A program made the translations under genes and the position numbers. Below the pieces are notes generated by a model that saw only the letters and a program-made list of their open reading frames with translations, was not told where the DNA came from and did no database searches. A stretch of DNA of 64,000 nucleotides from Terriglobia bacterium (lineage in GTDB: Bacteria; Acidobacteriota; Terriglobia; 20CM-2-55-15), in contig CBDBIN010000039.1 of NCBI GenBank assembly GCA_965206125.1, positions 10,202 through 74,201 on the forward strand, read 5' to 3'. Positions 8,801-51,826 of this stretch are shown here, piece after piece; within the stretch, counting starts at the first letter, position 1, and every line of letters begins with the position of its first letter.

Positions 8801-9115
8801 TTATCGGTTCGAGTGTTTCAGCGAGGCGACGAGTTCATCCGCGTCACGAGCCCCCCCGCGACGATACTGTCGTACGCTCTCGCGGATCTGACGTTTCACA
8901 GTCGGGTCACGTAACTCCAGGTAATCTTCCAGCTCGTCGACGTCGATAATCCCGGCGACCGGAATTCCATCCTTTTCAAGAACGAAGTACTCCTTGTTGA
9001 CGTGCACGCGGCGCACGATCTGACCAAGGTTAATGCGGGCTTTGGTGATGGGGATGCGCTGGATCGTGATGGTGTCTTTCTTTTTGTTGCTCAATGAAGC
9101 CCCTTGGCATATCAA
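8801..9115 (-). CDS. Type II antitoxin, Phd/YefM family
   Basis: ITKARINLGQIVRRVHVNKEYFVLEKDGIPVAGIIDVDELEDYLE is Phd/YefM-like. The true start may be an internal TTG (LSNKKK...). Confidence 0.75.
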   Translation of the reverse strand: MICQGASLSNKKKDTITIQRIPITKARINLGQIVRRVHVNKEYFVLEKDGIPVAGIIDVDELEDYLELRDPTVKRQIRESVRQYRRGGARDADELVASLKHSNR

Positions 9116-9197
9116 TCATTATTGATTGATATAAATGATTATACTCCTCTGAGCGGAGTTGTCACATGCACTACAGGGGACGGCGAGCGGTTTGAGT

Positions 9198-12267: not shown

Positions 12268-15200
12268 TTGTCCTGTGGCTCGGGTTTGGCCTGCGGAGTC
12301 GGGGCCCGGGCGCAGGGACGCGAGCTACTTCTGGGGGGCCTAGGGGCGGACATGGAAGTGGACGTCGCGCGGCAGCGTCTGTACGTATCGGTGCCTTCCC
12401 GCAACCAGATCGTTGTTATTTCGACTGAGACCTACGAAATCCTCGAACGGGTAACGGTTGGAACGGGGCCGCGGGGAATTGACATCAGCATCGACGGGAG
12501 CCTGTTGTTCGTTGCACTCGATGGGGGCGGTTCCGTCGTCTTTCTCGATCTGGAAACGTTCAGCTTTAGCAAGGTAGTGATCGGTGCGGAATTGAATAGC
12601 TCACGCACGCGGGACGTGATTGAAGGCCGCCCCGGCCGCGTGTTTGTATCCGCCATCAACGACCGCGGGCCCTCCTACGTCGTAATGATCAATCGTGATG
12701 CGAACAACGCGGCGACACGTGTCGCCGACGGTCGGATCATTTCGTCGTGGCCGGTATTCGCCAGCAGTCCCGACCAGGTCGCTGTATATATCGGAGAGGG
12801 TTTCTCAACGACGACGGACTGGCTTTACAAGCTGGACATTTCCGAAACCCCGGACTCGGGTCCAACGGCAGGACGGATCATACTGCGTAACGTTTTCGGT
12901 TCCGTGTCGGGAACCGAAAAGCTGGCGGTCAGTCCTGACGGAAACTTCATCTATACGGGGAGCGGACAGGTTCTCAGAACGAACTCGTTCATCCAAGTCG
13001 GCAGAGTGGGCAGGGGCGTGCCACGGGTCAGCGATGACGGCTCGCTCGTGTACGTCGCCCAAGTGCCCGATAAGATCTCCGTCTATGAGACGGCTACCTA
13101 TTCCCTGGTTGGTTCGATCACCATACCGTGCCGCATGTCGTCGATCCAGGCCTTCGATATCCTCCCGAACGGAGAAGACTACGTCATTCTGGCCGACGAC
13201 AGCGTGTGCACGGGCAGCCTTACGAGGACGGATCGGGTGGCGCTGGAGGCGTTGTACGATGCGACATACGGTTCGATCATCTGGAAAAACAGCACGAACT
13301 GGAAGACGGCTGCACCGCTGGGCGAGTGGTACGGGGTGACGACAGACGCTGCTGGCCGGGTCACGAAACTGGATCTCAGCGGGAATGAGTTAAAGGGGCG
13401 GATACCGGAGTCACTGGGGAGTCTGTCCAACCTCCAAGAGTTGAATCTACGAGACAACGAGTTGAGGGGGCCGATTCCTGAGGTGCTAAGAATTCTGTCC
13501 AACCTCCAAGTGCTGGATCTCAGTGAGAACGTGTTGGCCGGGCCGGTGCCGGCGTGGTTGAGGAATCTGTCCAACCTTAGAGAGCTATATCTCAGTTTCA
13601 ACGAGTTGAGGGGACCGATACCGGAATCACTGGGGAGCCTCTCCAACCTCCAAATGCTGGTTCTCTCCTACAACTGGGACGTGTCCGGACCGCTCCCGGC
13701 CAGCCTGCGACGGCCGCATCTTCGTGTACTGGATATTGGGGTGACGCAGGCCTGTGCGCCGCCAACCGCTTGGTGGGACTGGGTCCGGACGATCGATTTC
13801 TTCTTAGGAGCGGTGTGCGGGGTGGAGGCGGCTGTGACGATCGACGTGGCGGTCGTGTATACGCCGTCGGCCCGCGAGGCGGCGGGCGGTACTGCTGCGA
13901 TTGAGACGGAGATCGACCTGATGATCGCCGAGACGAACACGGCCTACACCGCGAGCGGGGTACACCACCGCGTGGCGTTGGTAGGCAGGTCCGAGGTGCG
14001 ATACACGGAGACGGGCGATTCTTACATCGATCTGGACCGGCTAAGGGATCCGGGGGATGGACACATGGACGGGGTCCACGCTATGCGCGACCGGACCGGG
14101 GCCGACCTCTTGCATCTAATTTTCAAGCGCGAGAGCGACGTTGCCGTTTTGGGCCTTGCGGAACTCGGCGGCCCGTTCGGCCTTACTTGCCAGGGATGTG
14201 GTGGCGACGTCTTCGCGCATGAGACGGGGCACAACATAGGGCTCCTCCATGATCGGTATGATGAGCGCCGTTTGGGCAAGACGTTGTTGCCACATCCGGC
14301 GTACGGCTATGTGAACCAGCGGGCGTTCGGCGCTTCCACCACTCCGTCCAGTGCTTGGATAACGATCATGGCGTACAATGCACAGTGCGCCGAAGCCGGA
14401 AAAACGTGCTCGAGGTTGCTCCGTTTCTCGAATCCGCGCCAGACCTGGATGGGTGACCGATTGGGCGTGCCCTTACACTCTGGAGGGCAGCGTGTGAGCG
14501 GCCCAGCCGACGCCGCGACGGTCCTCAATGCCACGGGTCTCGCCGTGGCGGCGTGGCGGGGCGGGGTGCCGGGCGTCGCCAATCCGCAGGCGGTTGGGAC
14601 CGAATCGTTTTCAATTCCGGACCGTGGGGGCCGATCAATAACGAGTAGCGGACTGGCGGAGTCTTTGAGAGTGGGCTATGGGCGAATTCGCGCGGACGAG
14701 GGTTCGACCACGCCTTCCGGGATCGCAATCTTTCAATTCAGGGACAGTGACGGTGTCCTGATTTCCGAAGCAGGTGTTCCAGCCGCCGAGCCGGTCCAGG
14801 ATGGGCGGATATTTGTCGAAGTAAACGGGCCGGTCAATACGGGCTTGGCGATCGCCAATCCGAACGACGGGCCAGCCACGATCCGCTTCTATTTCACCGA
14901 CACCAGCGGCACCCGTTTCGCTGACGGCAGCTTCGAACTCAGTGCGCGCCAGCAGACTGCGAAATTCCTGGATCAGGCACCATTCAACGGTGGCCCCTTC
15001 GTATTGGGAACATTTACGTTTACCTCATCGGTGCCGGTCGCTGTCGTCGCCCTACGGGGATTCACCAACGAAGCTGGCGAGTTTCTGATGACGACGCTCC
15101 CGGTTGCGCCCCTGTCATCCACCGTTTCGGATACGGTCTACTTCCCTCATTTTGCCGATGGTAGCGGATGGGCAACCCAGGTCATCCTCGTGAATCCAAC

Positions 15201-16011
15201 AGACCGAACGATCACGGGAACAGTTGGGTTCCTGGGACCCGGGAGCGACACGGCGGCGGTCTCGCCCGTGGTCCTGACGCTGGACGATGGCTCTACGGGA
15301 TCGAACTTCGATTATTCCATTGTTCCCCGCAGTGCCCAGAGATTCACCACCGGGAATCCCACAGGCGGCTTGGCCGTGGGTTCGGTGAGAGCGACACCGG
15401 ACATCGGAAACGCGGCCCCCTCGGGACTCGTTGTCTTTTCTTATGCCTCAGATGGGAAGACCCTTTCGGAATCCGGCGTGCCCGCGTTGCCAAAAGGCTC
15501 GGCATTCCGTCTCTATGTCGAAGCGTCCGGGTCGCCCGGCCAGGAAGGCTCGATCCGAAGCGGACTGGCCATCGCCAACGCGGCGGTCACGTTGAATACC
15601 GTGACTCTGGAGGTGACCCATCTGGATGGATCGCTGGCGGCCCCCCCGGCGACACGATCGCTTCCACCCTCGGGCCAGATTGCCCGTTTCATCGACGAGA
15701 TATTTTCGTTGCCGGACAACTTGTCCGGGGTGCTCCGGGTCACCTCCATGGCCGAAGTGGCCATCGTTGGATTGCGGTTACGCGTCAACGAGAGAGGCGA
15801 ACTGAAGGTAACGACGCCCCCACCATCAAACGAGACGGACCCGTTGACTACGGCGGAGACATTCTTCCCGCATATCGTGGACTCGGGGGGATGGTCCACC
15901 CAGTTGATCCTGTTCAGCGGAACAGCCGGCCAAGCGTCGTCGGGGACATTGCGTTTCATTGACGCGTCCGGACAACCGCTGGATCTGCCCATCACCCCAG
16001 CCCAACCCTGA
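12268..16011 (+). CDS. Multidomain protein: YVTN beta-propeller repeats, plant-type LRRs, reprolysin-like zinc metalloprotease, repeated C-terminal domains
   Basis: NQIVVISTETYEILERVTVGTGPRGIDIS (YVTN). LGSLSNLQELNLRDNELRGPIPE-type 24-residue LRRs. FAHETGHNIGLLHD (HExxHxxGxxH). Paired C-terminal repeats (YFPHFADGSGWATQVILVNP / FFPHIVDSGGWSTQLILFSG). TTG 12268 or ATG 12352; no signal peptide seen. Confidence 0.8.
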   Translation: MSCGSGLACGVGARAQGRELLLGGLGADMEVDVARQRLYVSVPSRNQIVVISTETYEILERVTVGTGPRGIDISIDGSLLFVALDGGGSVVFLDLETFSFSKVVIGAELNSSRTRDVIEGRPGRVFVSAINDRGPSYVVMINRDANNAATRVADGRIISSWPVFASSPDQVAVYIGEGFSTTTDWLYKLDISETPDSGPTAGRIILRNVFGSVSGTEKLAVSPDGNFIYTGSGQVLRTNSFIQVGRVGRGVPRVSDDGSLVYVAQVPDKISVYETATYSLVGSITIPCRMSSIQAFDILPNGEDYVILADDSVCTGSLTRTDRVALEALYDATYGSIIWKNSTNWKTAAPLGEWYGVTTDAAGRVTKLDLSGNELKGRIPESLGSLSNLQELNLRDNELRGPIPEVLRILSNLQVLDLSENVLAGPVPAWLRNLSNLRELYLSFNELRGPIPESLGSLSNLQMLVLSYNWDVSGPLPASLRRPHLRVLDIGVTQACAPPTAWWDWVRTIDFFLGAVCGVEAAVTIDVAVVYTPSAREAAGGTAAIETEIDLMIAETNTAYTASGVHHRVALVGRSEVRYTETGDSYIDLDRLRDPGDGHMDGVHAMRDRTGADLLHLIFKRESDVAVLGLAELGGPFGLTCQGCGGDVFAHETGHNIGLLHDRYDERRLGKTLLPHPAYGYVNQRAFGASTTPSSAWITIMAYNAQCAEAGKTCSRLLRFSNPRQTWMGDRLGVPLHSGGQRVSGPADAATVLNATGLAVAAWRGGVPGVANPQAVGTESFSIPDRGGRSITSSGLAESLRVGYGRIRADEGSTTPSGIAIFQFRDSDGVLISEAGVPAAEPVQDGRIFVEVNGPVNTGLAIANPNDGPATIRFYFTDTSGTRFADGSFELSARQQTAKFLDQAPFNGGPFVLGTFTFTSSVPVAVVALRGFTNEAGEFLMTTLPVAPLSSTVSDTVYFPHFADGSGWATQVILVNPTDRTITGTVGFLGPGSDTAAVSPVVLTLDDGSTGSNFDYSIVPRSAQRFTTGNPTGGLAVGSVRATPDIGNAAPSGLVVFSYASDGKTLSESGVPALPKGSAFRLYVEASGSPGQEGSIRSGLAIANAAVTLNTVTLEVTHLDGSLAAPPATRSLPPSGQIARFIDEIFSLPDNLSGVLRVTSMAEVAIVGLRLRVNERGELKVTTPPPSNETDPLTTAETFFPHIVDSGGWSTQLILFSGTAGQASSGTLRFIDASGQPLDLPITPAQP

Positions 16012-25702: not shown

Positions 25703-25973
25703 GGTTCTGGTGCAGATAGGATTCTCGGAACGATAAGACCAGGAGTGCGCCGTGGCGATGCGGACTATGCGGCCATGACGTGACGCCCGATCACCGCGGG
25801 ATTCGACCGCCATGGGATCGGAATTGCGAACTGGCGTTTGTGAATCTTCTGCGCCAGCTCGATACCGATAATCACGCGTCGCGCATTGTAGAACGCTTTG
25901 AACCCCAACATCGGGCGTAAGCGCCCCTGCACCCGGCGGTGGTCCTGCTCCACAACCTTGTTCAGGTATTGAC
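25703..25973 (-). mobile_element. IS6-family element, truncated copy (IR plus last ~62 codons of transposase)
   Basis: About 90 percent identical by eye to 9198-9470, including IR GGTTCTGGTGCAGATAGGATT. Track ORF 25765..25953 matches the C-terminus of the 9261..9983 transposase. Confidence 0.85.
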
Positions 25974-26004
25974 GGATGTGTTGCAGCCCACAGATAGAAA
26001 AGAC

Positions 26005-26036
26005 GGCGGCATAGAAAGCGCCACCGCCTTTTCTTT
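26005..26036. terminator. Bidirectional terminator-like hairpin downstream of katG
   Basis: GGCGGC...GCCACCGCC stem flanked by T-runs on both strands (TTTTCTTTC on plus). Confidence 0.45.
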
Positions 26037-26134
26037 CAAATCACGAAGAGTTCCACGTGATCTCACAACACGACGCTCAATATGAGCCGCCAGTCAGAAG
26101 CTCGACTATTTATCGTGTCGTTACGACCTTGCCA

Positions 26135-28360
<2,226 letters not shown>

Positions 28361-28509
28361 CTCAGTTGGCTCCTGGTAAGTCAGAAATTCAGTACATTTG
28401 CTTCATGCATTGGTCTCACTCTTTCCTGATATCTCCAGTCAGTCTGAAACGGACCTGGTTGATACGTCCAAGACATTATTTCTATAAGGATGATAGGATT
28501 TTACTATCA

Positions 28510-29457
28510 ATGATGAAACCCTACAACTTCTCACTTCGGCAGATTCAGTACGCAGTGACCGTGGCCGATACGAGGAACTTTCGCCGGGCTGCGGAGCGGT
28601 GCCATGTGTCTCAACCCTCACTGAGCGTGCAGGTGGCGGAGCTAGAAGCCGGGCTGGGCGTCCAGTTGTTTGAGCGCGATCGTCGTGGCGTGATGATTAC
28701 CACGGCAGGATCTGAACTCATTGACCGTATGCGGCGCGTTCTCCTTGAGGTAGACGATGTGAGAGGCGCCGCACGGCGGTTCCTGGATCCTCTAGCAGGC
28801 ACGCTACGAATCGGGGTGATACCGACCGTTGGACCCTACCTGCTCCCGACCGTCGCACCGCTACTACGCAAGGCACTTCCGCGCTTGACTCTAGCTTGGC
28901 TGGAGGACAAAACCGAGGCACTCGTTCGCCAGATCCGTCATGGAAACCTCGATGGCGGGTTGCTTGCTTTGGAAGCCGACATCGGTGACCTCACCTACGA
29001 GACGATCGGAAGAGATCCGTTCGTGCTTGCAACGCCACCGGATCACCTCCTTGGGCGGTCGTCCGCACCGATACCCTTCAGCCGATTGCGGGGCGAGCAC
29101 ATTCTTCTGCTTGATGAGGGACACTGCCTTCGGGATCAGGTTATCGAGTTTTGTAGCGGAAGAGGTGTTGAGGAACTCAATTTTCGGGCAACGAGTCTGC
29201 CGACGCTTGTGCAGATGGTCCGCGCCAACATGGGTATCACCTTGCTGCCACGCATCTCTGTGCCTACCGAAATTCTTCGGTCCGGCCTTAAGACCCGTCC
29301 AATATCACGACCGGTGCCATACCGCACCATCGTTCTGGCCTGGCGGCGGCGATCGTCTCTATTTGAAGCGATGCGGAAGATCGCCCAAACTGCGCGGCTC
29401 GCCGTTCATCGTACCCATTACAGAAAAGTACGCGGGGAAAAGAAGCAAGATCCGTGA
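28510..29457 (+). CDS. oxyR: LysR-family peroxide regulator OxyR
   Basis: Divergent from katG. LRQIQYAVTVADTRNFRRAAERCHVSQPSLSVQV LysR HTH. LLLDEGHCLRDQVIEFCSG carries the two redox cysteines spaced as in OxyR. Start ATG 28510 or 28513. Confidence 0.85.
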   Translation: MMKPYNFSLRQIQYAVTVADTRNFRRAAERCHVSQPSLSVQVAELEAGLGVQLFERDRRGVMITTAGSELIDRMRRVLLEVDDVRGAARRFLDPLAGTLRIGVIPTVGPYLLPTVAPLLRKALPRLTLAWLEDKTEALVRQIRHGNLDGGLLALEADIGDLTYETIGRDPFVLATPPDHLLGRSSAPIPFSRLRGEHILLLDEGHCLRDQVIEFCSGRGVEELNFRATSLPTLVQMVRANMGITLLPRISVPTEILRSGLKTRPISRPVPYRTIVLAWRRRSSLFEAMRKIAQTARLAVHRTHYRKVRGEKKQDP

Positions 29458-29515
29458 CCATCCCCGGGGAACCTACTATTGCGGGGCTTCTGTTGATCCT
29501 GCGTCCGGAGAATCG

Positions 29516-29530
29516 GGTTCTGGTGCAGAT
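29516..29530 (+). repeat. Solo IS6-type terminal inverted repeat
   Basis: GGTTCTGGTGCAGAT is identical to the IR at 25703-25717 (16 bp if 29515 is included). Sequence diverges immediately after. Confidence 0.6.
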
Positions 29531-31253: not shown

Positions 31254-31802
31254 GTGCGCACCTCCAGGGCGTTGGTCACCACCAAGGATGCGTTCGAACT
31301 CTTAGTGCTGACGGCGGCGCGGTCCGGCGAGGTGCGCCTGGCGACGTGGGATGAGATGGACCTGCACGCTGACGTGTGGATCATCCCCGCCGCGCGCATG
31401 AAGGCCAAGCGAGATCACCGTGTGCTGCTCTCCGGGCGGGCGCTCGCGATCCTGTACGACGCACGGAGACGCAGTGATGGCACGGGCTTGGTGTTCCGCA
31501 GTCCACGCGGGAAGCCGCTCTCTGACATGACGCTGTCGAAATTGATCAAAGAACTCGGCATCGCCGCCGTGCCGCATGGGTTCCGGTCGAGCTTCCGGGA
31601 CTGGGCCGCGGAGCAAACGAATACGCCTCGTGAGGTGGTCGAAGCCGCGCTCGCCCATACGGTGCGCAACCCGACAGAGGCGGCCTACGCCCGCAGTGAT
31701 CTCTTCGAGCGTCGGCGCCGCCTGATGGACGATTGGGCGGCCTATCTCGAAGAGTGCCGATCACAGGTTCGGGCGACAGATGGCCGCCGCTCCAGCCTGT
31801 GA
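31254..31802 (+). pseudogene. P4-type tyrosine integrase, C-terminal catalytic half only
   Basis: LLVLTAARSGEVRLATWDEMDL (catalytic Arg), HGFRSSFRDWAAE (HxxR), AYARSDLFERRRRLMDDW (catalytic Tyr region). N-terminal SAM-like domain absent. Confidence 0.8.
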
Positions 31803-31864: not shown

Positions 31865-32440
31865 CTAGGTCAAATGCACCGAGCGAGGGTCGACGAAGAG
31901 GTCGCCGGCAGGATGCGGCTGCTCCACACGCTGTAGGTACCCCTTCTTCTGCAGCGAAACCAAGCGGTTTCCTGCTGCCGTTTTCTCGATATTGACCCGT
32001 TCGGCAAAGCCAAAAGCGGTAACGGTCCCACCAGCTTGCGAGACCAGGCTCAGGGTTTCACGATCCTTCGCGGTGAGTACACCGACGGGTTCTGCGTCCT
32101 TGAGGTCGGCGGAAGAGGAGCATACGAACATGGCAACGTTCCTCGACTCAGCGACATCGCGAATCACGCTTCGGGTGTCCTCATCCTCACTGCAAATGAA
32201 CAACGAGAAATTCCCGTATCGCCCGGCTTTCACGTCTTCACCGACGGTCACAACGATATTCAGCAGGACCCCCGGTGCCGGGCGAGCGGCGTCCATATGG
32301 AGGACACCGAGCATAGGTCCGTGCTTCCGATCGTGTGGCATGAACCTGTGAATGAGCTGATCAACGCAAGGATCATCCACAACAGTAGGACCACTACCCA
32401 CAGGAGCGAATTTGACCTCGAACGGAATCGTCCCGGACAT
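31865..32440 (-). CDS. Hypothetical protein with C-terminal winged-helix-like region
   Basis: 191 aa. DRETLSLVSQAGGTVTAFGFAERVNIEKTAAGNRLVSLQKKGYLQRVE looks MarR/wHTH-like. N-terminal 120 aa unassigned. Divergent from the Ubl operon. Confidence 0.5.
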   Translation of the reverse strand: MSGTIPFEVKFAPVGSGPTVVDDPCVDQLIHRFMPHDRKHGPMLGVLHMDAARPAPGVLLNIVVTVGEDVKAGRYGNFSLFICSEDEDTRSVIRDVAESRNVAMFVCSSSADLKDAEPVGVLTAKDRETLSLVSQAGGTVTAFGFAERVNIEKTAAGNRLVSLQKKGYLQRVEQPHPAGDLFVDPRSVHLT

Positions 32441-32674
32441 AATTATTTCCCCCGTCGAAGTGAAGGGTAGCAGGTCTGAACGGGATTTGGATAGGCACCA
32501 TGGTCTCGGTCGGCGTCGTGGTGCCCGTCCTGCGTCAGTCGCGGCACTAACTCCTCGGCCGCCGCCGTCAGGCCGAACTGCTTCAGCAACGTCGTCAACG
32601 CCGTGCTCGGCGATGTCACCCGCGCAGACCTCCAGTCAACAGCGCGGGAACGGACTGGCCTCTGGTCCGGAGAC

Positions 32675-32703
32675 TTGACAGCCATGGCACACATGCGCAT
32701 AAT
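32675..32703 (+). promoter_or_regulatory. Near-consensus sigma70 promoter for the Ubl operon
   Basis: TTGACA (32675-32680), 17-nt spacer, CATAAT (32698-32703). Overlaps palindrome ATGCGCAT. TCCAC-N8-GTGGA follows. AAGGAG RBS lies 7 nt before ATG 32746. Confidence 0.55.
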
Positions 32704-32745
32704 ATCCACTGTGCATCGTGGACACCCTGGGCAAGGAGACAAGAA

Positions 32746-33012
32746 ATGAGCGACAAGCGTTTTGAGATCACATTCATTATTAATGGCCAGCCGTTTGAGG
32801 TCAAGGTCGGTCTGGACGAACAGATCGGGGAGGCCGTGGAAGAGGCGCTGAAGGTCTCGGGCAATTCCGGACAGGCCGCAGCGCGGTGGGAGCTGCGGGA
32901 CGAATCCGGCCAACCCATTGATACCGGGAAGAAGATCGGTGAATCGGGCATTGTTGCAGGCGCCAAACTACTCCTGAGCCTCAAGGCCGGCGTTGGCGGT
33001 AGCCGTGTCTGA
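32746..33012 (+). CDS. Ubiquitin-like (beta-grasp-sized) protein with C-terminal GG plus 3-residue tail
   Basis: 88 aa, ends LLLSLKAGVGG-SRV. First gene of an E2/JAB/E1 operon. Good RBS. Confidence 0.6.
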   Translation: MSDKRFEITFIINGQPFEVKVGLDEQIGEAVEEALKVSGNSGQAAARWELRDESGQPIDTGKKIGESGIVAGAKLLLSLKAGVGGSRV

Positions 33013-33733
33013 GCCGCAGTTCGCGGACCCGGCTGTTTCTCGACGGAAATTCGACAGGGAAATAGCCGAGTTTCGGTCGCAGGCCGACGAATACAGACGC
33101 CGCGGCTGGTTGCTCGAGGAAGCCGAATTCCCCCATGCGCTGGTGATTCTGACAACCGCCAAGACGCAACCCATCTCGATCCTGTGCGGGGTCTGGTTCG
33201 ACTACTCGAACTATGACGCGGCACCGCCATCCGTGCGTCTCGTCCACCCGTTGACCCGTGAGCCTTACACATGGTCGGAGGTGCCAACGCGGTTGCCGCG
33301 AATGCCAGCGCCGCCGGGCGTCGCACAGGCGCTGCCGCCGGGCGTCGCGCAGGCGCTGCCACCGGGCGTCGCGCAGGCGCTGCCACCGGGCGTCGCGCAG
33401 GCGCTGCCACCGGGCGTCGCGCAGGCGCTGCCACCGGGCGTCGCGCAGGCGCTGGCGCAAGGTGTCGCGCAAGCGCAACTGGTGGTGCCGATACCGCTCA
33501 TGCAAGCCTACGGCGACGACGACATTCCTTTTCTGTGCCTCGCCGGCGTGCGGGAATACCACGAGCATCCTGCCCACAGCGGCGACCACTGGTTATCGCA
33601 CCGGACTTCCGGCGCGGGGCGTCTTGTCCGGCTTCTCGAGGTCATCTCCAAGTACGGCCCGGAGACCATCCTCGGTTTTGAGGTCGAGATGACACCGAAA
33701 ATCCGACTCCGTGCGGCCAGTCCACCGGAATGA
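32993..33733 (+). CDS. E2-like (UBC-fold) conjugating enzyme with internal octapeptide repeat
   Basis: AAPPSVRLVHP (PPxxxF/HPN-like) and DIPFLCLAGVREYHEHPAHSGDHW (candidate catalytic Cys, codon 33536-33538). Start TTG 32993 or GTG 33005 overlapping the Ubl stop. Confidence 0.6.
   Translation: MAVAVSEPQFADPAVSRRKFDREIAEFRSQADEYRRRGWLLEEAEFPHALVILTTAKTQPISILCGVWFDYSNYDAAPPSVRLVHPLTREPYTWSEVPTRLPRMPAPPGVAQALPPGVAQALPPGVAQALPPGVAQALPPGVAQALPPGVAQALAQGVAQAQLVVPIPLMQAYGDDDIPFLCLAGVREYHEHPAHSGDHWLSHRTSGAGRLVRLLEVISKYGPETILGFEVEMTPKIRLRAASPPE
33311..33478 (+). repeat. 24-bp in-frame tandem repeat, 6 near-perfect units plus 1 degenerate
   Basis: Unit CCRCCGGGCGTCGCRCAGGCGCTG. Units 3-6 (33359-33454) are identical. 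Encodes PPGVAQAL x6 then AQGVAQAQ. Confidence 0.95.
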
Positions 33734-34215
33734 GTACTTTCGAGTTGATTCGAGAGTTTGTTGTTTCGGGTGACCTTTGTGACGCGACGGACCGGCAGTT
33801 ACGTGCAGCTGGACTCGATGGAAACGAGCGCTTCATACTCTGGACCGGCATAGTCCGCGACGACCGCTTGCTTGTCAGGACGATGCACTGCCCGAAACAG
33901 ACTGCCTATCGCCTGGCCAGCGGGTTGTGCGTGCGCGTCGAGGCGGACGAGCTTCATCGGCTCAACGTGTGGCTGTACGAGAACGCCGAACGGCTTGCCA
34001 TACAGGTGCACTCGCACCCCACCGAAGCCTTTCACTCGGATACCGACGACGCCTACCCCATGGTGACGACGCTTGGGGGGTTGTCTCTGGTGGTGCCCGA
34101 CTTCGCCCGGTACGGCGTTCGGGGTCCCGAAACCGCGCTGTACCGCTTGTCGATTACGGGATGGCTTGGGCTGTCGCCAACGGAGGCCAGGCGTGTCCTG
34201 CGCCTGGAGGATTGA
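33730..34215 (+). CDS. JAB/MPN (JAMM) metallopeptidase
   Basis: 161 aa. IQVHSHPTEAFHSDTDD is the HxH...SxxD JAMM motif, with upstream Glu in GNERFILW. The start ATG shares ATGA with the E2 stop. Confidence 0.85.
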   Translation: MSTFELIREFVVSGDLCDATDRQLRAAGLDGNERFILWTGIVRDDRLLVRTMHCPKQTAYRLASGLCVRVEADELHRLNVWLYENAERLAIQVHSHPTEAFHSDTDDAYPMVTTLGGLSLVVPDFARYGVRGPETALYRLSITGWLGLSPTEARRVLRLED

Positions 34216-34217
34216 CC

Positions 34218-35699
34218 ATGGCGATTCCGGACTACTTTCAACGTAATGCCGTCGCCATTTCTCAAGCCATTTCCGGCCTCGACGAACAGCGTCTTGAGGC
34301 GCGGTTGGCCGATGTGTGTATTGGCGTCACACTCGGGCCTGACGCTGGCGACGAAGAGGGTCAGGCCATGGCCGATTTGCTGGTTCGCTTATTGGCACGG
34401 CTCTATCCGTCGCTAGTCATTCGCGAGGAGGGAGCAGGTGGCGTCGGGGACCAGGTCAGTGCGTTGGCGCGCCGAATCAACCCGCGTATCGACCTGTCGG
34501 GGCAGCCGACAATAGAGGTGGTCGTCGGCACAGCGCGTCCGCGCTGGAAGACCGCTCGAACCGTGTTCGTGGGATCCAAGAGCTGGAGTGCCAGGCTGTC
34601 GACACATGACACGCAAGGATGCGGGGCGAGCAACAACCCGTTCGGGGCGGGGTTGGCGTCCTGTCTGGCGGCGGCCGACGTGTTCAGACACGTGTTCCTT
34701 CCCGGAGCAGAACAACTGGACGGCGAATACGAGATCGCCGTTCCAAATGTCGGCGAATGGGCTACTGACGACGAGGATGTCCATGGGAACGTCGGCAGCG
34801 TCGTTCTGGCCGGCGCCGGCGCCATCGGCAACGCCGCCGCATGGGCATTGTCCCGCACTCGGGTGGAGGGGTCGATCGAGATCGTCGATCACGAGTCGGT
34901 GGACCTCGGCAATCTGCAACGGTACGTACTGGCGGAACGTGACGACAAGGAGAAGCCAAAGGCCTCTTTCGTCGCCGGGGGATTCAATGGCACGCTCAGC
35001 GCGAGTGCCCATGAATGCACGCTTGCCGAGTTTCTGCAGAAGAAGAATCACAAGGTCGACAACCTCCTGCTGGCGCTCGACTCCGCGAAGGATCGTTGTG
35101 CTGCTCAGGCGTCATTGCCCCGCCGAGTAGCCAACGCGTGGACCCAGCCGGGCGACCTGGGTGTTTCCTCGCACGACTTTCTGGAAGGCGCTTGCGTCAC
35201 CTGCCTGTACCTGCCGGATGGCGAGCAGAAGAACGAGGATCAGATCATCGCGGAATCCTTCGGTGTGCCGGATCGGTTGATGCAGGTTCGGACGCTGCTG
35301 TACCAGAATGCAGGTGCGCCAAGGGATCTGCTCGTGGCGATTGCCACGGCACGGGACTTACCGCTCGCAAAGCTCCTGCCGTTCGAGGGCCGCCCGTTGC
35401 TGGCCCTGTACACGGAAGGCTTTTGCGGCGGCGCCGTGATCCCGCTAGGTGACCTTGGAAGGCCGGCGAATGACGTCCATGTTCCCTTGGCCCACCAGTC
35501 GGCGTTGGCCGGCGTGCTGCTGGCCGCCGCCGGTGTACGCATGGGCCTGAGCGGACGTGTGGACAGTGTCGTCACGCGGTATGACGTACTCAAGCCGCAG
35601 AAACGGTTTCAGGTGTCTCCAGCGGCAAAACATGCCGGGGAAAGGTGCATCTGCCAGGACGCAGATTATCGTGAGGTGTACCGCAGAAAGTACCAGTGA
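34218..35699 (+). CDS. E1-like ThiF-family adenylyltransferase
   Basis: ATG 34218, 2 nt after the JAB stop. VVLAGAGAIGNAAAWAL Rossmann loop, IEIVDHESVDLGNLQRYVL, Cys-rich GACVTCLYLPDG. The track start 33927 is a spurious extension over JAB. Confidence 0.8.
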   Translation: MAIPDYFQRNAVAISQAISGLDEQRLEARLADVCIGVTLGPDAGDEEGQAMADLLVRLLARLYPSLVIREEGAGGVGDQVSALARRINPRIDLSGQPTIEVVVGTARPRWKTARTVFVGSKSWSARLSTHDTQGCGASNNPFGAGLASCLAAADVFRHVFLPGAEQLDGEYEIAVPNVGEWATDDEDVHGNVGSVVLAGAGAIGNAAAWALSRTRVEGSIEIVDHESVDLGNLQRYVLAERDDKEKPKASFVAGGFNGTLSASAHECTLAEFLQKKNHKVDNLLLALDSAKDRCAAQASLPRRVANAWTQPGDLGVSSHDFLEGACVTCLYLPDGEQKNEDQIIAESFGVPDRLMQVRTLLYQNAGAPRDLLVAIATARDLPLAKLLPFEGRPLLALYTEGFCGGAVIPLGDLGRPANDVHVPLAHQSALAGVLLAAAGVRMGLSGRVDSVVTRYDVLKPQKRFQVSPAAKHAGERCICQDADYREVYRRKYQ

Positions 35700-35702
35700 A
35701 TG

Positions 35703-35855
35703 ACCCAACCGCCGGGATCCCCCGCGCGGGTCTCGTACTGCTCGGTCCGCGATTCCGCGCCGGCCGCGATGTTGATCATGTCGGTGGCGGCGTAGGACAC
35801 GTCGGCGTGGAGCGCGACCTCCCGCCGCCGGTTGCTGCCGAGCTGCCGGTCTGTA
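35703..35855 (-). pseudogene. TonB-dependent receptor gene fragment (about 50 codons)
   Basis: Track ORF 35666..35899 contains LGSNRRREVALHADVSYAATDMINIAAGAESRTEQYETRAGDPGGW. This is a paralog of GGNRQREFGLNFDVSYAATEMVNIAAGTEWRHEQYRTTEGEPDSW in the 5030..7672 receptor. Confidence 0.7.
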
Positions 35856-35911
35856 TCGCTGAGGTGGACGGGACGGGGATCGGATGTGTGCGACAACAAA
35901 GGAGCACAACG

Positions 35912-36625
35912 GTGGGTGGCACTGAGGGCAGCGATCTCTTGTGGTACGAATCACTGTCGGACGACGAGTCGTGGTTTTCGCTGTGGAGCGGGTACATCCG
36001 CTGCGTCTGCAGCGGATGTACCCGCTCCACAGCGGAACAATGCCCCGTTTGCGGCGAGGACCCGCCGAATCTGGACTGGAAGGTCGTGCGCGACACTGAC
36101 GGCAACGAATACCGTGTGCCACCTGCCTTCTGTGGGGCCGAGGGCCGGTACGAGGATTGGATCTACCTGCGAATGCTGGAACGGGAGTGGCTAAGGCCCG
36201 TCGAGGCGGAACTATATGACTCGATCCCAGAGGACCATCGCCCTTCCGCGCGAGCGATTGTCGTGCTGATGTTTTGGAGTTACTTCGAGACGCGTATCGA
36301 AAGGTTGTTTCGGGAGACGGTGAAGGCGGTGCCTGAGAAGGTGATGGACCACCTTCTGGATCGCTATTCCTCCGTCGGTGCGAGGATGGACAGGCTCTAT
36401 AAGATTGTTTTTTCAACGACGTATCGGGCCGATCTCAACGATCTCGGGTATGGCAAAGTAGCGGCGCTCCTAGGAAGGGTGCAAAAGTGTCGAAATAAAT
36501 TTACGCACGGCCACCCGGAAGCGATTGACGATGCACTGGTCGAAGAGCTAGTGCCAGGTCTGAAGGACGAACATGAGGGTTGGATCGCCGTCTTCAACAG
36601 GCGCCTGAAGGAAGTGCGCAAGTAA
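35912..36625 (+). CDS. Zinc-ribbon protein with HEPN-like C-terminal helical domain
   Basis: AAAGGAG then GTG 35912. CVCSGC...CPVCG zinc ribbon. C-terminal LLGRVQKCRNKFTHGHP has an RNxxxH (Rx4H) HEPN-type motif. The track start 35696 reads through the antisense TBDR scar. Confidence 0.55.
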   Translation: MGGTEGSDLLWYESLSDDESWFSLWSGYIRCVCSGCTRSTAEQCPVCGEDPPNLDWKVVRDTDGNEYRVPPAFCGAEGRYEDWIYLRMLEREWLRPVEAELYDSIPEDHRPSARAIVVLMFWSYFETRIERLFRETVKAVPEKVMDHLLDRYSSVGARMDRLYKIVFSTTYRADLNDLGYGKVAALLGRVQKCRNKFTHGHPEAIDDALVEELVPGLKDEHEGWIAVFNRRLKEVRK

Positions 36626-36899
36626 TCGGGAATGCAGCACGGCTGATCGGGCGCGGTGACAGACGAACGAGGCGCACACCGGTTCGAGCGCGGCACTCCA
36701 CCGGCCGGCACGGTGATTCCGTCACCTGGACGATTTCGGGCCGACCAGCGTGCGGCAGTTCGTCGACCGGCCAGACGTGCTCGGAGAGCGCACCGCCGAT
36801 CAAGGGCAGCAGGACGCCTTCGGGCAGGTGGACGCTTGGCTCTCGGTGCTAGGCTTGAGGTGATTCGTGACTGCGGCGTCAAGTGTCAAGATTCGCTCC

Positions 36900-37691
36900 A
36901 TGGACATGCCGATCATCGATAGGGTGTTCGGCATGGAGGGCGGCTTTGTGCTCGATTTCTCAAATCGGACTTTCGCGGAGTTCTTTCACGACGAGGTCAA
37001 CGTCGACATCGACAATCCCCATTGGGCGGTTCAGGGTGGGAGCAAGGCCAAGCGCCTTCGCTACTACTTGCGCCAGGCAGACCGTCCAGAAGCCCTCGAC
37101 ACGCTGAATGCATTGTGGGAATACCGCGAGGCGAGCAGGGTTACCGCCGACTATCCAGAACTAGATGACTCGGTACTCACGGCCTACTTCCGGATCATCG
37201 AACGGCTCGGGGGCAAGCCACCAGAGTCTGCGGTGCCCACCGCCGCGCATCGAGAACTGCGTATCGATGTCGCCGCAACGTCTGCGCTCGCCGCCCAATT
37301 GCTCGCCGTTTCCACCATGGACCCGCAAGCCCGTGGCTATGCCTTCGAGAAGTTCCTGAAGGATGTGTTCGACGCCTATGGGATGTCCGCGCGCGCCTCC
37401 TTCCGTCTCACGGGCGAGCAGATCGACGGCAGTTTCGTGCTCGGCGAACAGACCTATTTGCTCGAAGCGAGATGGAGGAACGCGAAGGTCGATGTGGAGA
37501 CGCTTCGTGCCTTCAACGCCAAGGTTGAGGACAAGGCCAGTTGGTCCCGCGGCCTTATCATCAGCCAAAGCGGCTTCACAGCGGACGGACTGCACGCATT
37601 TGGACGCGGCAAGAGTGTCGTTTGTATGAATGGACTCGATCTGCACGAGGTCTTGTCCGGCCCGCTTGATCTGGCTGAAGTCATCGCATAA
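36900..37691 (+). CDS. Mrr-like (PD-(D/E)xK) restriction endonuclease domain protein with N-terminal helical domain
   Basis: GYAFEKFLKDVFDAYG...EQIDGSFVLGEQTYLLEARWRN...SRGLIISQSGFT matches the Mrr_cat-type layout. N-terminal GGFVLDFSNRTFAEFF module. Confidence 0.6.
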   Translation: MDMPIIDRVFGMEGGFVLDFSNRTFAEFFHDEVNVDIDNPHWAVQGGSKAKRLRYYLRQADRPEALDTLNALWEYREASRVTADYPELDDSVLTAYFRIIERLGGKPPESAVPTAAHRELRIDVAATSALAAQLLAVSTMDPQARGYAFEKFLKDVFDAYGMSARASFRLTGEQIDGSFVLGEQTYLLEARWRNAKVDVETLRAFNAKVEDKASWSRGLIISQSGFTADGLHAFGRGKSVVCMNGLDLHEVLSGPLDLAEVIA

Positions 37692-38006: not shown

Positions 38007-38291
38007 TCCCCAAGCCCGCGTGGGAAGCTGCTCTCCGACGCAACGCTGAGCCAGCTGATCAAAGAACTCGGCATCGCCGCCGTGCCGCATGGGTTCCGGT
38101 CGAGCTTCCGGGACTGGGCCGCGGAACGGACGAACACACCCCGCGAAGTGGTCGAGGCCGCACTCGCCCATACGGTACAGAATCCCACAGAGGCGGCCTA
38201 CGCGCCAACTGATCTCTTCGAGCGTCGGTGCCGCCTGATGGACGACTGGTCCGCCTACCTCTGTGGAACCCTCGGGCCCGTGATGTTATGA
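38007..38291 (+). pseudogene. P4-type integrase 3-prime fragment (second copy)
   Basis: SPRGKLLSDATLSQLIKELGIAAVPHGFRSSFRDWAAERTNTPREVVEAALAH... About 88 percent nucleotide identity by eye to 31520-31760, including a ~69-bp identical run. Confidence 0.8.
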
Positions 38292-46327: not shown

Positions 46328-48315
46328 GTGCGCCGTGAAAGGTGAGTCAACGCAGCCGGTGAAAGTCCGGTCCAAGGAGGTGTCGGTAGACCTTGGTAGC
46401 TACCCAGGCGGTGGCAAGGGCGACCAACCCATCGAAGCCCTGGGGACAGAGACCCGCCTTGGGCGGGTTTGCAAGCGTGCGGGCCGCAACGCGAGTGAAG
46501 CCTGAGCAGGCCTCGAAAGGTTGAATGCGAGCGCCGAGTCTCCTCTCATTAGACGAAGGCCCATGAGGGTGGCCAGATGAACCGACAAGAGACGGTCGCC
46601 CTGCTCGCCGGGGTAGTGGGCGCAGCACGTACGCACGCGGGGACTCGCAACACGGGAAACCTGTTGTGCTGCCGGGGAGACCTGGCAACGGCTCCAACTG
46701 GGAGGCGGGCGCGACAGGCGTCGGAGGGGCTCATACTACCGATGAACCCGGGTAATGCCGGGGGAGGGAAGGAGCCCTAGTTCGGGGTGCGTTTGAACGA
46801 GTTGAGATGAGGAGATTGGCGTGAGCCTGGCAACTCCAGAAAAGATTCGGAAGCTCCAACGAGCGCTCTACGTGAAGGCCAAGCATGAGCCGACACGGCG
46901 ATTCCACTTCTTATATGACAAGGTGTGGCGTGAAGACATTCTGACCCACGCCTACGCGCGTTGCCGATCCAACGGTGGGGCGCCGGGCGTGGATGGGGAA
47001 ACCTTTACGCACATTGAGGGATATGGGGTGGACCGCTGGCTCAACACGGTACGGGAGGAGGTGCGAACAGGACGCTACAGACCGCAACCGGTCAAACGGG
47101 TGATGATTCCAAAGTCTGGTGGCGTGGGCCAACGGCCGCTGGGGATTCCGACTATCCGTGACAGGGTAGTGCAAACCGCGGCGAAGTTGGTGCTCGAACC
47201 GATTTTCGAAGCAGACTTCGATGGGGCGGTCTACGGGTATCGTCCCAAACGGAGCGCGCTGGATGCGGTTCGAACCGTTCATCGGGCAATTGATGAGGGG
47301 CACACCAAAATAGTCGATGCCGATCTATCGAAATACTTCGATACGATTCCCCACCCCGAGCTGATCAAGTGCGTTGCACGACGTGTTAGCGACGGGAAGA
47401 TGCTGCATCTGATCAAGATGTGGTTGAAGACGCCGGTCGAGGAGACCGGCGAACGGGGACATCGGCGGATGAGTGGCGGCAAGAAGGCGACGCGGGGAAC
47501 ACCGCAGGGTGGAGTGGCATCGCCATTGTTGGCGAACATCTACATGCATCGTTTCATCAAGGCGTTTCGCAAGCATGGTTTGGATCGTCGGTACGACGCG
47601 GTGCTGGTGACCTACGCGGACGATTTCGTGGTCCTGTGTCGGCATGGCGCCGGTGAGGTCCTCGAAACGACTCGGCGATGGATGGCCAGCATCGGTCTCA
47701 CGCTGAACGAGACCAAGACGCGTGTATGCGACGCCCGATGCGAGCCCTTCGACTTCCTCGGCTATACCTTCGGGCCGATGTACTCTCCGCGAACCGGCGG
47801 ACGCTACAACGGTGCGCGGCCTTCCAAGAAGGCTGTGGCCTCGGTCAAGGAGCATATCCGGCGACGCCTGCGGTCCGGTAATCACGCGCCATGGGAAGAC
47901 GTGGCGCGGGGCCTGAACCGCATGGTGCGGGGATGGTCGGCCTACTTCAGCTATGGGTCGGTGACGCAGGCGCGACACGGGGTGAAACTGTATCTCTATC
48001 ACGCCGTCCGTCGCTTCCTTCGGCGTCGGCACAAAGTGGCCGGGTCTGGTTACCGGCGGTTCCCCACCGATGAGGTATTTGGGAAGCTGGGCGTGCTGTC
48101 TCCCGAATCCTGTCCGCATGAGGTCTGGTCGGCAATGCGCACGCCTTGACGTGAAACCCGTCCGAGAGCCGGGTGCGGGAAATCCGCACGCCCGGTTCGA
48201 TGAGCGGGGAGGAGAAACGGAGCGATGGACTTCTCGGCGAGACCAGCAACGAAAGACGCTGGCCGCTATCGGCGCCGCCGGTCCTGTACGCCACCGCGCT
48301 TCTCCTCGACTCTAC
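46328..48315 (+). mobile_element. Full-length group II intron (about 1.99 kb)
   Basis: 5-prime GTGCG at 46328. Intact RT ORF. Domain V GAGCCGGGTGCGGGAAATCCGCACGCCCGGTTC at 48166-48198. Proposed 3-prime end ...TCGACTCTAC at 48315. Confidence 0.8.
46821..48149 (+). CDS. Group II intron reverse transcriptase/maturase
   Basis: 442 aa. RPLGIPTIRDRVVQ, DADLSKYFDTIPH, GTPQGGVASPLLANIYM, TYADDFVVL, domain X LNRMVRGWSAYFSYG. Confidence 0.9.
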   Translation: MSLATPEKIRKLQRALYVKAKHEPTRRFHFLYDKVWREDILTHAYARCRSNGGAPGVDGETFTHIEGYGVDRWLNTVREEVRTGRYRPQPVKRVMIPKSGGVGQRPLGIPTIRDRVVQTAAKLVLEPIFEADFDGAVYGYRPKRSALDAVRTVHRAIDEGHTKIVDADLSKYFDTIPHPELIKCVARRVSDGKMLHLIKMWLKTPVEETGERGHRRMSGGKKATRGTPQGGVASPLLANIYMHRFIKAFRKHGLDRRYDAVLVTYADDFVVLCRHGAGEVLETTRRWMASIGLTLNETKTRVCDARCEPFDFLGYTFGPMYSPRTGGRYNGARPSKKAVASVKEHIRRRLRSGNHAPWEDVARGLNRMVRGWSAYFSYGSVTQARHGVKLYLYHAVRRFLRRRHKVAGSGYRRFPTDEVFGKLGVLSPESCPHEVWSAMRTP

Positions 48316-50338: not shown

Positions 50339-51826
50339 CTACAACCGATCCCCATATTCTTTAATCGCGATGGCCAACGCCGTGTCCAGCCACCGCAAGA
50401 ACGAATCCTCTATCTCCTGCTCGCTCGTCCGATGTGTGAAGACGAATGGCTCCATGGAGCACACTTGAAATTCCTGTGAAACCACGTCCCGGTCTTCGGA
50501 GTTCTCGTAAGATTCCAGCTTGGCAAACGCTGTGGCTTCCATGATTCCCGAAAGCTCCCGTCCAACGTGATGGAATGAGGTGACGAACACGAGCCTCTCG
50601 CGGTCGACCCATACGCTGGCTTTCAGGAAGTAGTGAGCCTCTACGAAGTTCGCAAACTTGCCTACCTCATTGGCCGTCTGGACGACTTCGAATTTGTACC
50701 AATGTGCGTTATCGTGATCCGGCCCACCGTTCGCAATCCTGATGGTTGGTTCGCCAACCGTTGCCAGTGGCTTTGCCAGTTCACTGAAGATCTTCTCGAC
50801 ATGTTCTCTGGCGTTTTGACGTAGCCTGATCGCGACGTCGTTAACCTTCCTAAGCTCGGTCAGCTTCGCCTGACGCCGTCGGCTGAACTTTTCGGTAAGG
50901 GTTTCGATGACGGCTGAAGTCAGGATGCGCTCGTGAGCTACTTCTGCTTCCGCATCGACACTCAGGGCCTGAACAATTGCGGTTCGTTCCAGGCGCGCAA
51001 AAAGCTGTGCAAGAGCGCGAAGGTCGCCGTCGTCGGCCTTTTCCAGAGCACCGAGGTATTCGATGCGGAGATCGCGATCGATAACTAGCGGCAGCAGGTC
51101 CGATCGAAGCAGAACATATGTGATGAGTGCCCTCGCAACGCGTCCATTCCCGTCCTGGTACGGGTGAATTTGAGTGAAGCGATGGTGAAGCCATGATGCG
51201 ACAATGACCGGATCGATTGACTCGTAATTCGAAAAGGACTCCAAAAGGCGCTCCATCTCGGAATCCACGTGTACAGTAGGACAGTACTCATGAACGGATC
51301 CGTCGGGGCGCTTCGGATTGTTTGCCAGTTCTTTGTAGACTCCTTTTCTCAGTGGAATGTCGATCCGGTTACCGAACTGATCGACTGCCACAGTCGTATC
51401 TTGGTGCCTGGTCAGAATCGTGTGAAATTCGTGTATTACGCCTTTGCTCAACGACCGGTTGCCGGCAACACAATCCATCACCAGTTGAATGGCTGCCTCG
51501 TGGTCCCTCAGAATGTCAATCAATCGTGACGGTTCGATGTCCGTGCTCGAACTGGAAATCAGATCTTCGATGAAACCCTTGGCAACGAGCGCTTCGGTTG
51601 TTCCGCGGTCGAGATCGTAGAGGCGTTCGAGGATGCCGGTTTCGACGCTGAGCTGCCGGACGAGCTTTGTCGTAAAGCTCTTCAGCGCCGCAGTGCCTGA
51701 GGCCTTCAGGAGCGCTTTCGATGCGTGCCAGGACTCATACAGGGGGGTCGTGGCCGCCAAGTCGATCGCCCTGTCCTGATCGGTCAGTGGTTCAATCGGG
51801 TGCCACTTATAATTTGTCATCCTCAA
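50339..51826 (-). CDS. Fic-family protein with ~200-aa unassigned C-terminal region
   Basis: HPYQDGNGRVAR matches the Fic core HxFx(D/E)GNGRxxR. N-terminal SVETGILERLY resembles the Fic_N inhibitory-helix region. Confidence 0.85.
   Translation of the reverse strand: MRMTNYKWHPIEPLTDQDRAIDLAATTPLYESWHASKALLKASGTAALKSFTTKLVRQLSVETGILERLYDLDRGTTEALVAKGFIEDLISSSSTDIEPSRLIDILRDHEAAIQLVMDCVAGNRSLSKGVIHEFHTILTRHQDTTVAVDQFGNRIDIPLRKGVYKELANNPKRPDGSVHEYCPTVHVDSEMERLLESFSNYESIDPVIVASWLHHRFTQIHPYQDGNGRVARALITYVLLRSDLLPLVIDRDLRIEYLGALEKADDGDLRALAQLFARLERTAIVQALSVDAEAEVAHERILTSAVIETLTEKFSRRRQAKLTELRKVNDVAIRLRQNAREHVEKIFSELAKPLATVGEPTIRIANGGPDHDNAHWYKFEVVQTANEVGKFANFVEAHYFLKASVWVDRERLVFVTSFHHVGRELSGIMEATAFAKLESYENSEDRDVVSQEFQVCSMEPFVFTHRTSEQEIEDSFLRWLDTALAIAIKEYGDRL

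Follow-up and report, generated by a model that had tools for sequence, protein, structure and literature searches.

The E2-like conjugating enzyme BilB encoded in a 64,000-nucleotide stretch of Terriglobia bacterium DNA (the window: contig CBDBIN010000039.1, positions 10,202 to 74,201; phylum Acidobacteriota) contains an in-frame tandem repeat in the loop that joins strand β4 to the catalytic cysteine, and closely related alleles differ in the number of repeat units. Judged by comparison of these alleles, the array is a genuine variable-number tandem repeat (VNTR), recently expanded. Our overall interpretation, to which we give slightly better than even chances, is that a VNTR in the loop near Cys178 of a Type II BilB is gained and lost by slippage, most likely altering the reach of the loop.

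Seven in-frame 24-bp units at 33311-33478 encode six copies of PPGVAQAL followed by AQGVAQAQ. The original prediction, made from the letters of this DNA, had described this arrangement and the identity of units 3-6, and both direct reading of the sequence and Tandem Repeats Finder (TRF) bear it out. TRF reported positions 33310-33476 with a period of 24, 7.0 copies, 94% matches, no indels and a score of 271. The runner-up tandem array in the 64-kb window scored 52, which leaves 33311-33478 as the sole strong tandem repeat there, and a separate repeat search of the window recovered the same seven-copy family at this position. Head-to-tail units of high identity (94% matches, four of them identical) are a feature of VNTRs. 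Lys, Cys and charged residues are absent from the encoded array, which is built of P, G, V, A, Q and L only. Two minus-strand open reading frames (ORFs) run across the array (32616-33434 and 32981-33589); these were taken as spurious ORFs of GC-rich DNA, the plus-strand frame being the one with strong homology. The repeat peptide showed a weak match to the 'LPPGIAK' repeats of Salmonella CigR (PDB 4ew5, E=0.18) and another to the Ala/Gln/Pro/Lys-rich tail of ribosomal protein L29. Both matches are probably compositional.

To look for copy-number polymorphism, we searched 5.8 billion proteins, which returned 767 relatives of BilB. The best 120 of these, 62-92% identical to the window protein, show length differences that are multiples of 4 or 8 residues and lie wholly within the loop. 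Among proteins at least 96% identical to the window protein apart from the variable middle, the number of full units is 1, 2, 4 or 6. Clusters formed at 90% identity, with lengths of 208-266 aa, hold members differing by whole units; cluster 4, for instance, has members with 3, 4 and 5 PPGVAQ(P/A)L-type units. An exact-sequence look-up of the window BilB in the protein collection found no identical allele.

At the nucleotide level, close alleles (98.0-98.9% identical outside the array) form an ordered series, u1-u2-(CCA unit)n-terminal, where u1 and u2 are the first two units and the CCA unit is the sequence repeated in units 3-6. The value of n is 0 in loci L001 and L084, 1 in L248, 2 in L247 and L082, and 4 in the window; L249, with flanks 95.8% identical, has n = 3. 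Because these near-identical alleles carry 0, 1 or 2 CCA units versus 4 here, the expansion appears to be recent, as the earlier analysis had supposed. Alleles at ∼95-96% identity contain blocks of identical variant units (PPGG×3 with PPGI×3; PPAV×2 ... PPGI×2), which point to local tandem duplication. Two samples each contained two arrays on different contigs, with 8 and 3 units in total, including the terminal one, in ERZ25069191, and 7 and 4 in ERZ25766727. These data bear out the suggestion that the locus is a VNTR. Every array read out is in frame, including alleles with n = 0, 1, 2 and 4. Because the unit comprises 8 codons, the frame and the downstream catalytic Cys are never lost, and loop length changes without a frameshift, again as predicted. 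An on/off phase-variation switch, as at a contingency locus, was rejected on the same grounds.

We asked whether the copy number, or the array itself, might stem from repeat mis-assembly. The unit count comes from the assembly alone, and the four identical units span 96 bp. A 150-bp read is, however, longer than this identical core, and the units on either side can be told from it. Moreover, homologous window-type arrays, in frame in every case and with their unit types in order, are present in at least 10 independent assemblies from different samples, whose contig names are mostly of long-read style ("ctg..._39x_l"), with one in SPAdes style (NODE_..._cov_7.3). We consider an artefact highly improbable.

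The gene carrying the repeat had been predicted to encode an E2, and comparison with known structures leaves little doubt of this. BilB matches E2(BilB) of Ensifer aridi TW10, a component of a Type II BilABCD system (PDB 8TYZ/8TZ0; Chambers et al., PMC10557695), with E=9.5e-42 to 8tyz_C, and its AlphaFold model superimposes on 8tz0_C with a target-normalised template modelling (TM) score of 0.94 and a root-mean-square deviation (rmsd) of 1.2 Å. A further match, to Pfam PF14455 (Metal_CEHH / Y4jH-like; 1.2e-49), falls into two stretches, with the repeat as the exact gap between them. The E2 identity was taken from this PDB and Pfam homology. The PADLOC BilB model, which is Type I-based, matches the window E2 only weakly (1e-4), over the N-terminal half, and no NCBIfam model covers it. 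Foldseek comparison to eukaryotic E2s gave weak matches only (E 0.3-5, probability up to 0.66), and BilB has been reported to superimpose on UBC12 and UBE2D2 with an rmsd of 3.0-3.4 Å, which supports a UBC fold (PMC10557695).

The active-site residues C178, E184, H186 and H191 align with C138, E144, H146 and H151 of E. aridi. In an alignment of 74 diverse family members, C178, H186 and H191 are invariant and E184 is found in 69/74. Mutation C138A in E. aridi abolishes conjugation of the ubiquitin-like protein (Ubl) (PMC10557695). By virtue of this alignment with a proven cysteine and of its invariance in the family, Cys178 is identified as the catalytic residue. It is the Cys of the FLCL motif, which the original prediction had singled out; the positions it gave for VRLVHP (33233-33250) and for this Cys codon (33536-33538) both agree. 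One could imagine a non-catalytic Cys and a repeat that just joins two domains, since the Pfam domain is reported as two stretches with the repeat between them. Both stretches are halves of a single E2 fold, though, given the superposition on 8tz0_C, and Cys178 aligns with an experimentally essential residue and is invariant. These data rule out the interdomain linker, whose probability we regard as practically nil.

In canonical UBC-fold E2s such as UBE2D2, an HPN motif lies ∼8 residues before the catalytic Cys. No HPN with a catalytic Asn is found ∼8 residues ahead of the Cys in the window BilB. The end of its strand β4, VRLVHP, occupies the HPN site, and in this positional sense the motif can be called HPN-like. 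Its residues are another matter. Family position 81, the His column, reads D33/H24/N15 in the 74 sequences, and position 83, the canonical Asn column, reads F35/L24, with HPL in the window. Similarly, the prediction of an unusually long segment after β4 holds in part. The window loop, from the β4 Pro to the Cys, has 95 residues and is the longest among the 74 aligned members. The baseline, however, is a family median of ∼50 residues (34-79 in the other aligned members), rather than 8-10, and the range is 36-121 among 48 motif-bearing 50%-identity representatives. Because the family loop is already ∼50 residues long, the repeat lengthens a pre-existing loop and does not create an insert. A long loop at this position is a family-wide feature; none of the listed family representatives outside the clade of the window protein has a tandem repeat.

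To place the array relative to the active site, we modelled BilB with AlphaFold2. A run on close homologs only was poor, with a mean predicted local distance difference test (pLDDT) score of 55, and was replaced by one on a diverse family alignment (mean pLDDT 86.6, predicted TM score 0.76). In this final model, the means of ten-residue blocks are 96-98 over residues 11-100 and again over 161-220. The block that holds residues 101-102 has a mean of 71, and the array blocks (residues 103-158) have means of 51-71 and one-turn helices only; the shallow-alignment model gave 28-38 for the array. The two arms of the loop, LTREPYTWSEVPTRLPRMPA on the N-terminal side and LVVPIPLMQAYGDDDIPFL on the C-terminal side, fall almost entirely within the 96-98 blocks. 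In the C-terminal arm, M166, Q167, P175, F176 and L177 are invariant or nearly so. Structure prediction therefore locates the array in the β4-Cys loop between ordered arms, with only 19 residues between it and Cys178. In the E. aridi crystal chains, 134-146 of the 204 BilB residues are modelled and 58-70 are unresolved, and the authors described the β4-Cys loop as extended, disordered and highly divergent and proposed that it mediates target recognition (PMC10557695). On the model, the array is the variable middle of a loop already recognised in the family, predicted with low confidence and probably disordered.

We then surveyed the repeat across the family. Only 342 family members emerged when 1.84 billion 50%-identity representatives were searched exhaustively with a hidden Markov model, and the entire repeat-bearing clade collapses into a single representative, P0069. 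The 149 other listed representatives were scanned for tandem repeats of period 4-24 with at least 2.5 copies and at least 70% identity; none had one, and positive controls with at least 3 copies were detected. Orthologs that are 67-72% identical, from Gemmatimonadota metagenome-assembled genomes (MAGs), retain the octapeptide motif (LPPGVEQALPPEIAQALAQGGAQA), and LPPGVEQALPPEIAQAL is read in orthologs of this identity in other phyla. Going by these orthologs, the octapeptide motif is old. Almost all members retain the terminal unit AQGVAQAQ, itself repeat-like, and there are alleles with 0-1 full units (P0059, P0070 and P0027). Within the unit, variation is highest at positions 4 (V/I/G/F/A) and 3 (G/D/A) and lowest at positions 5, 7 and 8 (A, A and L). 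This pattern was counted in a fixed 8-residue register over the 19 distinct arrays found among 27 close proteins, one of which (P0076) is out of register and contaminates the count, and so is a trend only.

How might such a locus work? The allelic series suggests that single units would be gained or lost through replication slippage or unequal recombination between 24-bp units, and that copy-number change would outpace point substitution. On the same comparison, the window allele, u1-u2-4×CCA-terminal, is probably a recent expansion of a u1-u2-terminal ancestor. As the 8-codon unit keeps the frame, the locus would be a length dial rather than an on/off switch. Gain or loss of octapeptides would most likely change the distance to which the flexible loop extends beyond the active-site face, and an altered projection could in turn bring different target surfaces or lysines within reach of the E2~Ubl thioester. 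We propose tuning of target reach because Bil pathways have no E3 and because of the published view that the loop selects targets; how targets are recognized in Bil systems is explicitly an open matter (bioRxiv 10.1101/2023.09.04.556158). Functional tuning of this kind by copy number is a tentative proposal, to which we would give somewhat less than even chances; the larger part of what is left falls to a disordered loop that tolerates slippage neutrally. Several points weigh against our interpretation. The seven-unit count of the window allele is as assembled. The pattern of positional variability comes from 19 arrays that are phylogenetically non-independent. Neutrality explains the polymorphism equally well, as disordered loops tolerate slippage products. 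Finally, antiviral function was shown for the Type I Bil system of Collimonas (bioRxiv 10.1101/2023.09.04.556158), whereas for the Type II system of E. aridi conjugation was shown and antiviral defence only suggested (PMC10557695). For the window operon, only its setting in a defence- and mobile-gene island hints at Ubl conjugation to lysines and at an anti-phage role.

That neutral slippage in a GC-rich repeat has produced a selectively irrelevant array, tolerated because the disordered loop middle is free to vary in length, with copy number having no effect on the E2, would fit with the span of family loop lengths (34-121 residues, with unrelated sequences), the predicted disorder of the array and the existence of alleles with 0-1 full units. 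Harder to square with it are the retention of the octapeptide motif in other phyla, in orthologs only 67-72% identical, the conservation of unit positions 5, 7 and 8 while positions 3-4 vary, and the persistence of the terminal unit in almost all members. We regard it as somewhat unlikely. A different idea is that each PPGVAQAL binds a phage protein that is itself repetitive or oligomeric, such as a trimeric tail fibre. Copy number and residues 3-4 would govern the avidity and specificity of binding, and the array would do the work of an E3 while evolving fast. It draws on the published proposal of target recognition by the loop (PMC10557695), on the trimeric central tail fibre targeted by Type I Bil (bioRxiv 10.1101/2023.09.04.556158), on the concentration of variation at positions 3-4, with variant units amplified in blocks, and on the 19 distinct arrays among 27 close proteins. 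The units, however, are small, uncharged and of low complexity, and hence a poor surface for specific binding; no structure is predicted for the array, and the variation could be neutral substitutions hitch-hiking during duplication. Such multivalent binding seems to us quite improbable. The related and broader claim, that the array is a fast-evolving specificity module whose copy number and residues 3-4 are selected by phages, retargeting Ubl conjugation on ecological time scales, is unlikely as well.

Alternatively, the Lys-free loop could fold over Cys178 as a lid and restrain E1-to-E2 transfer or discharge until an infection cue, with copy number setting the strength of auto-inhibition. 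The loop does enter the active site directly, 19 residues from array to Cys178, and an array with no Lys would avoid self-modification. But there is no sign of occlusion in the E. aridi structures or paper, where the loop is simply unresolved (PMC10557695), and the model contains no confident contact. A regulatory lid is thus very improbable. Of these possibilities, a slippage-prone VNTR that alters loop reach is the one we favor.

The closest characterized system is that of E. aridi, which has the same four-gene order and in which all four proteins are homologous to those of the window (E 1e-12 to 1e-97). Its BilB shares the CEHH motif, the catalytic Cys and the extended, unresolved β4-Cys loop. 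The loop there consists of ∼56 residues of unique sequence (LPGTPPEMISNLIQQNAV), versus 95 with an octapeptide array in the window, and near-identical alleles of the window type differ in their number of units. The overall identity amounts to only ∼34-38%, and the host is a member of the Rhizobiaceae, in contrast to the Acidobacteriota, Gemmatimonadota and other MAGs seen here. Type I BilABCD, from Collimonas sp. OK412 (Hör et al., bioRxiv 10.1101/2023.09.04.556158), follows the same logic of Ubl, E2, deubiquitinase (DUB) and E1, and is a defence system that puts Ubl on a phage structural protein with no E3 involved. It is a distinct sequence group, as the poor PADLOC match described above indicates. 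The window E2 differs from it in having Glu184 and His186, which are Type II features (PMC10557695), and the window Ubl differs in being single-domain.

Canonical E2s have in common with the window BilB a catalytic Cys after β4 and probably the core fold, and in both, loops close to the active site can be seen as modulators of activity. They differ in the stretch before the Cys: the window BilB lacks the Asn, its family does not conserve the His, and the spacing is 95 residues. E2s with insertions near the active site include Cdc34/UBE2G, whose acidic loop is short, of fixed length and located after the Cys. We are aware of no E2 whose repeat varies in copy number, and literature searches on BilB/BilD, BilABCD and CEHH brought up neither such an enzyme nor any description of repeats in this loop. 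A parallel at the level of the repeat is the Xr region of Staphylococcus aureus protein A, an in-frame 24-bp octapeptide VNTR; similar Pro-rich repeat spacers exist. Xr and the window array both have a 24-bp unit, an 8-residue peptide containing Pro and Gly, gain and loss by slippage, a flexible spacer and a preserved frame. Xr, though, lies in the stalk of a surface protein, outside catalytic domains, whereas the array here lies inside a cytoplasmic E2 fold, directly upstream of the Cys. Phase-variable contingency loci also use hypermutable repeats to generate heritable diversity through slippage, but they act on/off by frameshift or promoter spacing, while a 24-bp unit changes protein length only. 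As far as our searches show, the kind of operon (Type II BilABCD) is already known, a copy-number-variable repeat in its E2 loop is undescribed, and BilB is the first E2-fold enzyme with such a repeat inside the catalytic domain.

The four genes of the operon are co-oriented, with ends overlapping or abutting, and the order Ubl-E2-DUB-E1 is also found in relatives. A promoter-like site precedes them (table), and an AAGGAGA ribosome-binding site can be read between it and the bilA ATG. BilA ends in ...KAGVGG|SRV, with Gly-Gly followed by a 3-residue tail, and its alignment to 8tyx_A (...KAGVAG-A) stops at the reactive Gly; the SRV tail is presumably removed by the DUB. The start of bilB overlaps the bilA stop by 8 nt. 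In BilC, Glu33 and the metal motif HSHPTEAFHSDTD (HxH...S..D) align to 8tyx_B. The mechanically called E1 ORF, 33927-35699, starts at a GTG inside bilC; homology and the relatives (493 aa) point instead to ATG 34218, two bases past the bilC stop. BilD comprises an inactive and an active adenylation domain (Pfam Prok-E2_C for the inactive one, and ThiF). Its catalytic Cys403 aligns with C417, and NLQRYVLA (with its Arg), ACVTC and RCIC are conserved, as are the zinc CxxC and CxC. Because all four proteins match the E. aridi structures, the host operon is, by homology, a complete Type II BilABCD (CEHH/6C) ubiquitin-like conjugation operon. It has the gene order, the CEHH E2, the E1 with two adenylation domains, the Ubl with masked Gly together with a JAMM DUB, and the extended loop.

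Next to the operon, a divergent gene lies directly upstream (31865-32440, minus strand), at 91-93% nucleotide identity in L081, L082, L083 and L085. Its only match is a weak one to a MarR-type helix-turn-helix (4e-4), and it is a candidate regulator. CapH/CapP regulators, comparable in position, have been reported for some Type II Bil operons (PMC10557695). Downstream, ORF 35696-36625 (probable start near 35915) abuts the E1 stop and contains a Cys-rich CxxC...CxxC segment. It had no Pfam or PADLOC match, is conserved downstream in L084 (236 aa) and is absent from L081 and L085. An Mrr_cat nuclease gene (36867-37691) follows, the same succession being found in L084. This ORF may be an accessory partner of the Bil cassette. 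Some related operons look like decayed copies. In L002 (Vicinamibacterales MAG, 6001-9931), BilB has an in-frame stop (REP*KWSE) and bilC a ∼1.3 kb insertion at a site equivalent to window 34064/34066; in L083 (2431-2715), bilC is called at only 94 aa.

The Bil operon and two downstream genes lie between the copies of a 249-nt direct repeat (31500-31748 and 38013-38261, 85% identical, 6513 nt apart), and L084 is arranged likewise. The first copy of the repeat lies inside a truncated tyrosine-integrase ORF, 31254-31802, which retains the Phage_integrase C-terminal domain only. This suggests that the Bil cassette was inserted or duplicated at an integrase-associated site. The katG-lysR segment (25969-29516) is 98% identical to that of Terriglobia MAG CBDCKF010000002.1 (L167), and synteny ends there, with both flanks different. 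Because the sequence on either side of katG-lysR differs from the nearest genome, the Bil region is a strain-variable island. A scan of genome contigs for BilB, from which 80 loci were kept, did not include this nearest genome among them. In other assemblies, the operon is found beside integrases together with its conserved divergent neighbor upstream and the genes downstream, all at 94-98% identity. BilB relatives occur in MAGs labelled Bryobacterales, Vicinamibacterales, Longimicrobiales, Candidatus Palauibacter, Rhodobacterales and Pseudomonadales, and because of this spread over such different taxa, we consider the operon mobile. Its neighbors in the window include a resolvase, PIN toxins, an integrase fragment, Mrr-type and McrBC-type nucleases, a Fic protein that matches the PADLOC SoFic and PDC-S04 models, a group II intron and a transposase, consistent with a defence/mobile-element island. 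Further away, a plus-strand gene at 12268-16011 encodes a 1247-aa protein with leucine-rich repeats and a reprolysin/M12 metallopeptidase domain. Leucine-rich repeats combined with a metallopeptidase make a eukaryote-like architecture, often seen in symbionts.

Table. Coordinates of the repeat, its host gene and operon, and mobile or defence genes in the window
Feature	Coordinates	Strand	Remarks
Whole array	33311-33478	+	BilB residues 103-158; TRF score 271
Unit 1	33311-33334	+	CCGCCGGGCGTCGCACAGGCGCTG; begins at codon boundary of ORF 32993/33005-33733
Unit 2	33335-33358	+	Unit 1 with GCA -> GCG
Units 3-6, expanded core	33359-33454	+	Four identical CCACCGGGCGTCGCGCAGGCGCTG (CCA-type unit)
Unit 7, terminal	33455-33478	+	GCGCAAGGTGTCGCGCAAGCGCAA; encodes AQGVAQAQ
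bilB, E2-like conjugating enzyme (CEHH / Pfam PF14455)	33005-33733	+	242 aa from GTG 33005
End of strand β4, VRLVHP	33233-33250	+	Residues 77-82; model strand E76-80; position of canonical HPN, without Asn
Conserved N-terminal loop arm	33251-33310	+	LTREPYTWSEVPTRLPRMPA; residues 83-102; conserved in 120 homologs
Conserved C-terminal loop arm	33479-33535	+	LVVPIPLMQAYGDDDIPFL; residues 159-177; leads into active site
CEHH active-site motif	33536-33577	+	Catalytic Cys178 (33536-33538), Glu184, His186, His191
Promoter-like TTGACA-17-CATAAT	32675-32703	+	Consensus match only, 11/12; upstream of operon
bilA, ubiquitin-like protein	32746-33012	+	88 aa; Pfam DUF2604 6.7e-22; 8tyx_A 1.2e-12
bilC, JAB/JAMM deubiquitinase	33730-34215	+	161 aa; 8tyx_B 4.9e-33; PADLOC BilC 2.8e-12
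bilD, E1	34218-35699	+	493 aa from ATG 34218; 8tyz_A 2.6e-97, full length
Group II intron reverse transcriptase/maturase	46821-48149		
Fic	50339-51826		
McrBC and EVE/AAA_5 McrB-like	59020-60366, 60924-62216		
Mutator-family transposase	62244-63809		

How Bil systems choose their targets with no E3 is unresolved according to both founding papers, one of which points to this very loop. The alleles described here form a natural series of near-identical operons with 0 to ∼8 octapeptide units in exactly the loop that is the candidate for target recognition. Because target recognition by Bil is explicitly unsolved, the series is a ready-made experiment, in which the loop hypothesis is testable with natural alleles and no engineered truncations are needed. 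On integrase-associated islands, the operon itself passes between sponge-type Acidobacteriota, Gemmatimonadota and Proteobacteria MAGs. Should copy number be neutral, the locus would provide a clean example of length tolerance in a loop near a catalytic site. If the array were a specificity module, the choice of target would be written into a slippage-prone repeat beside the E2 active site, giving the enzyme a built-in counterpart of hypervariable immune receptors.

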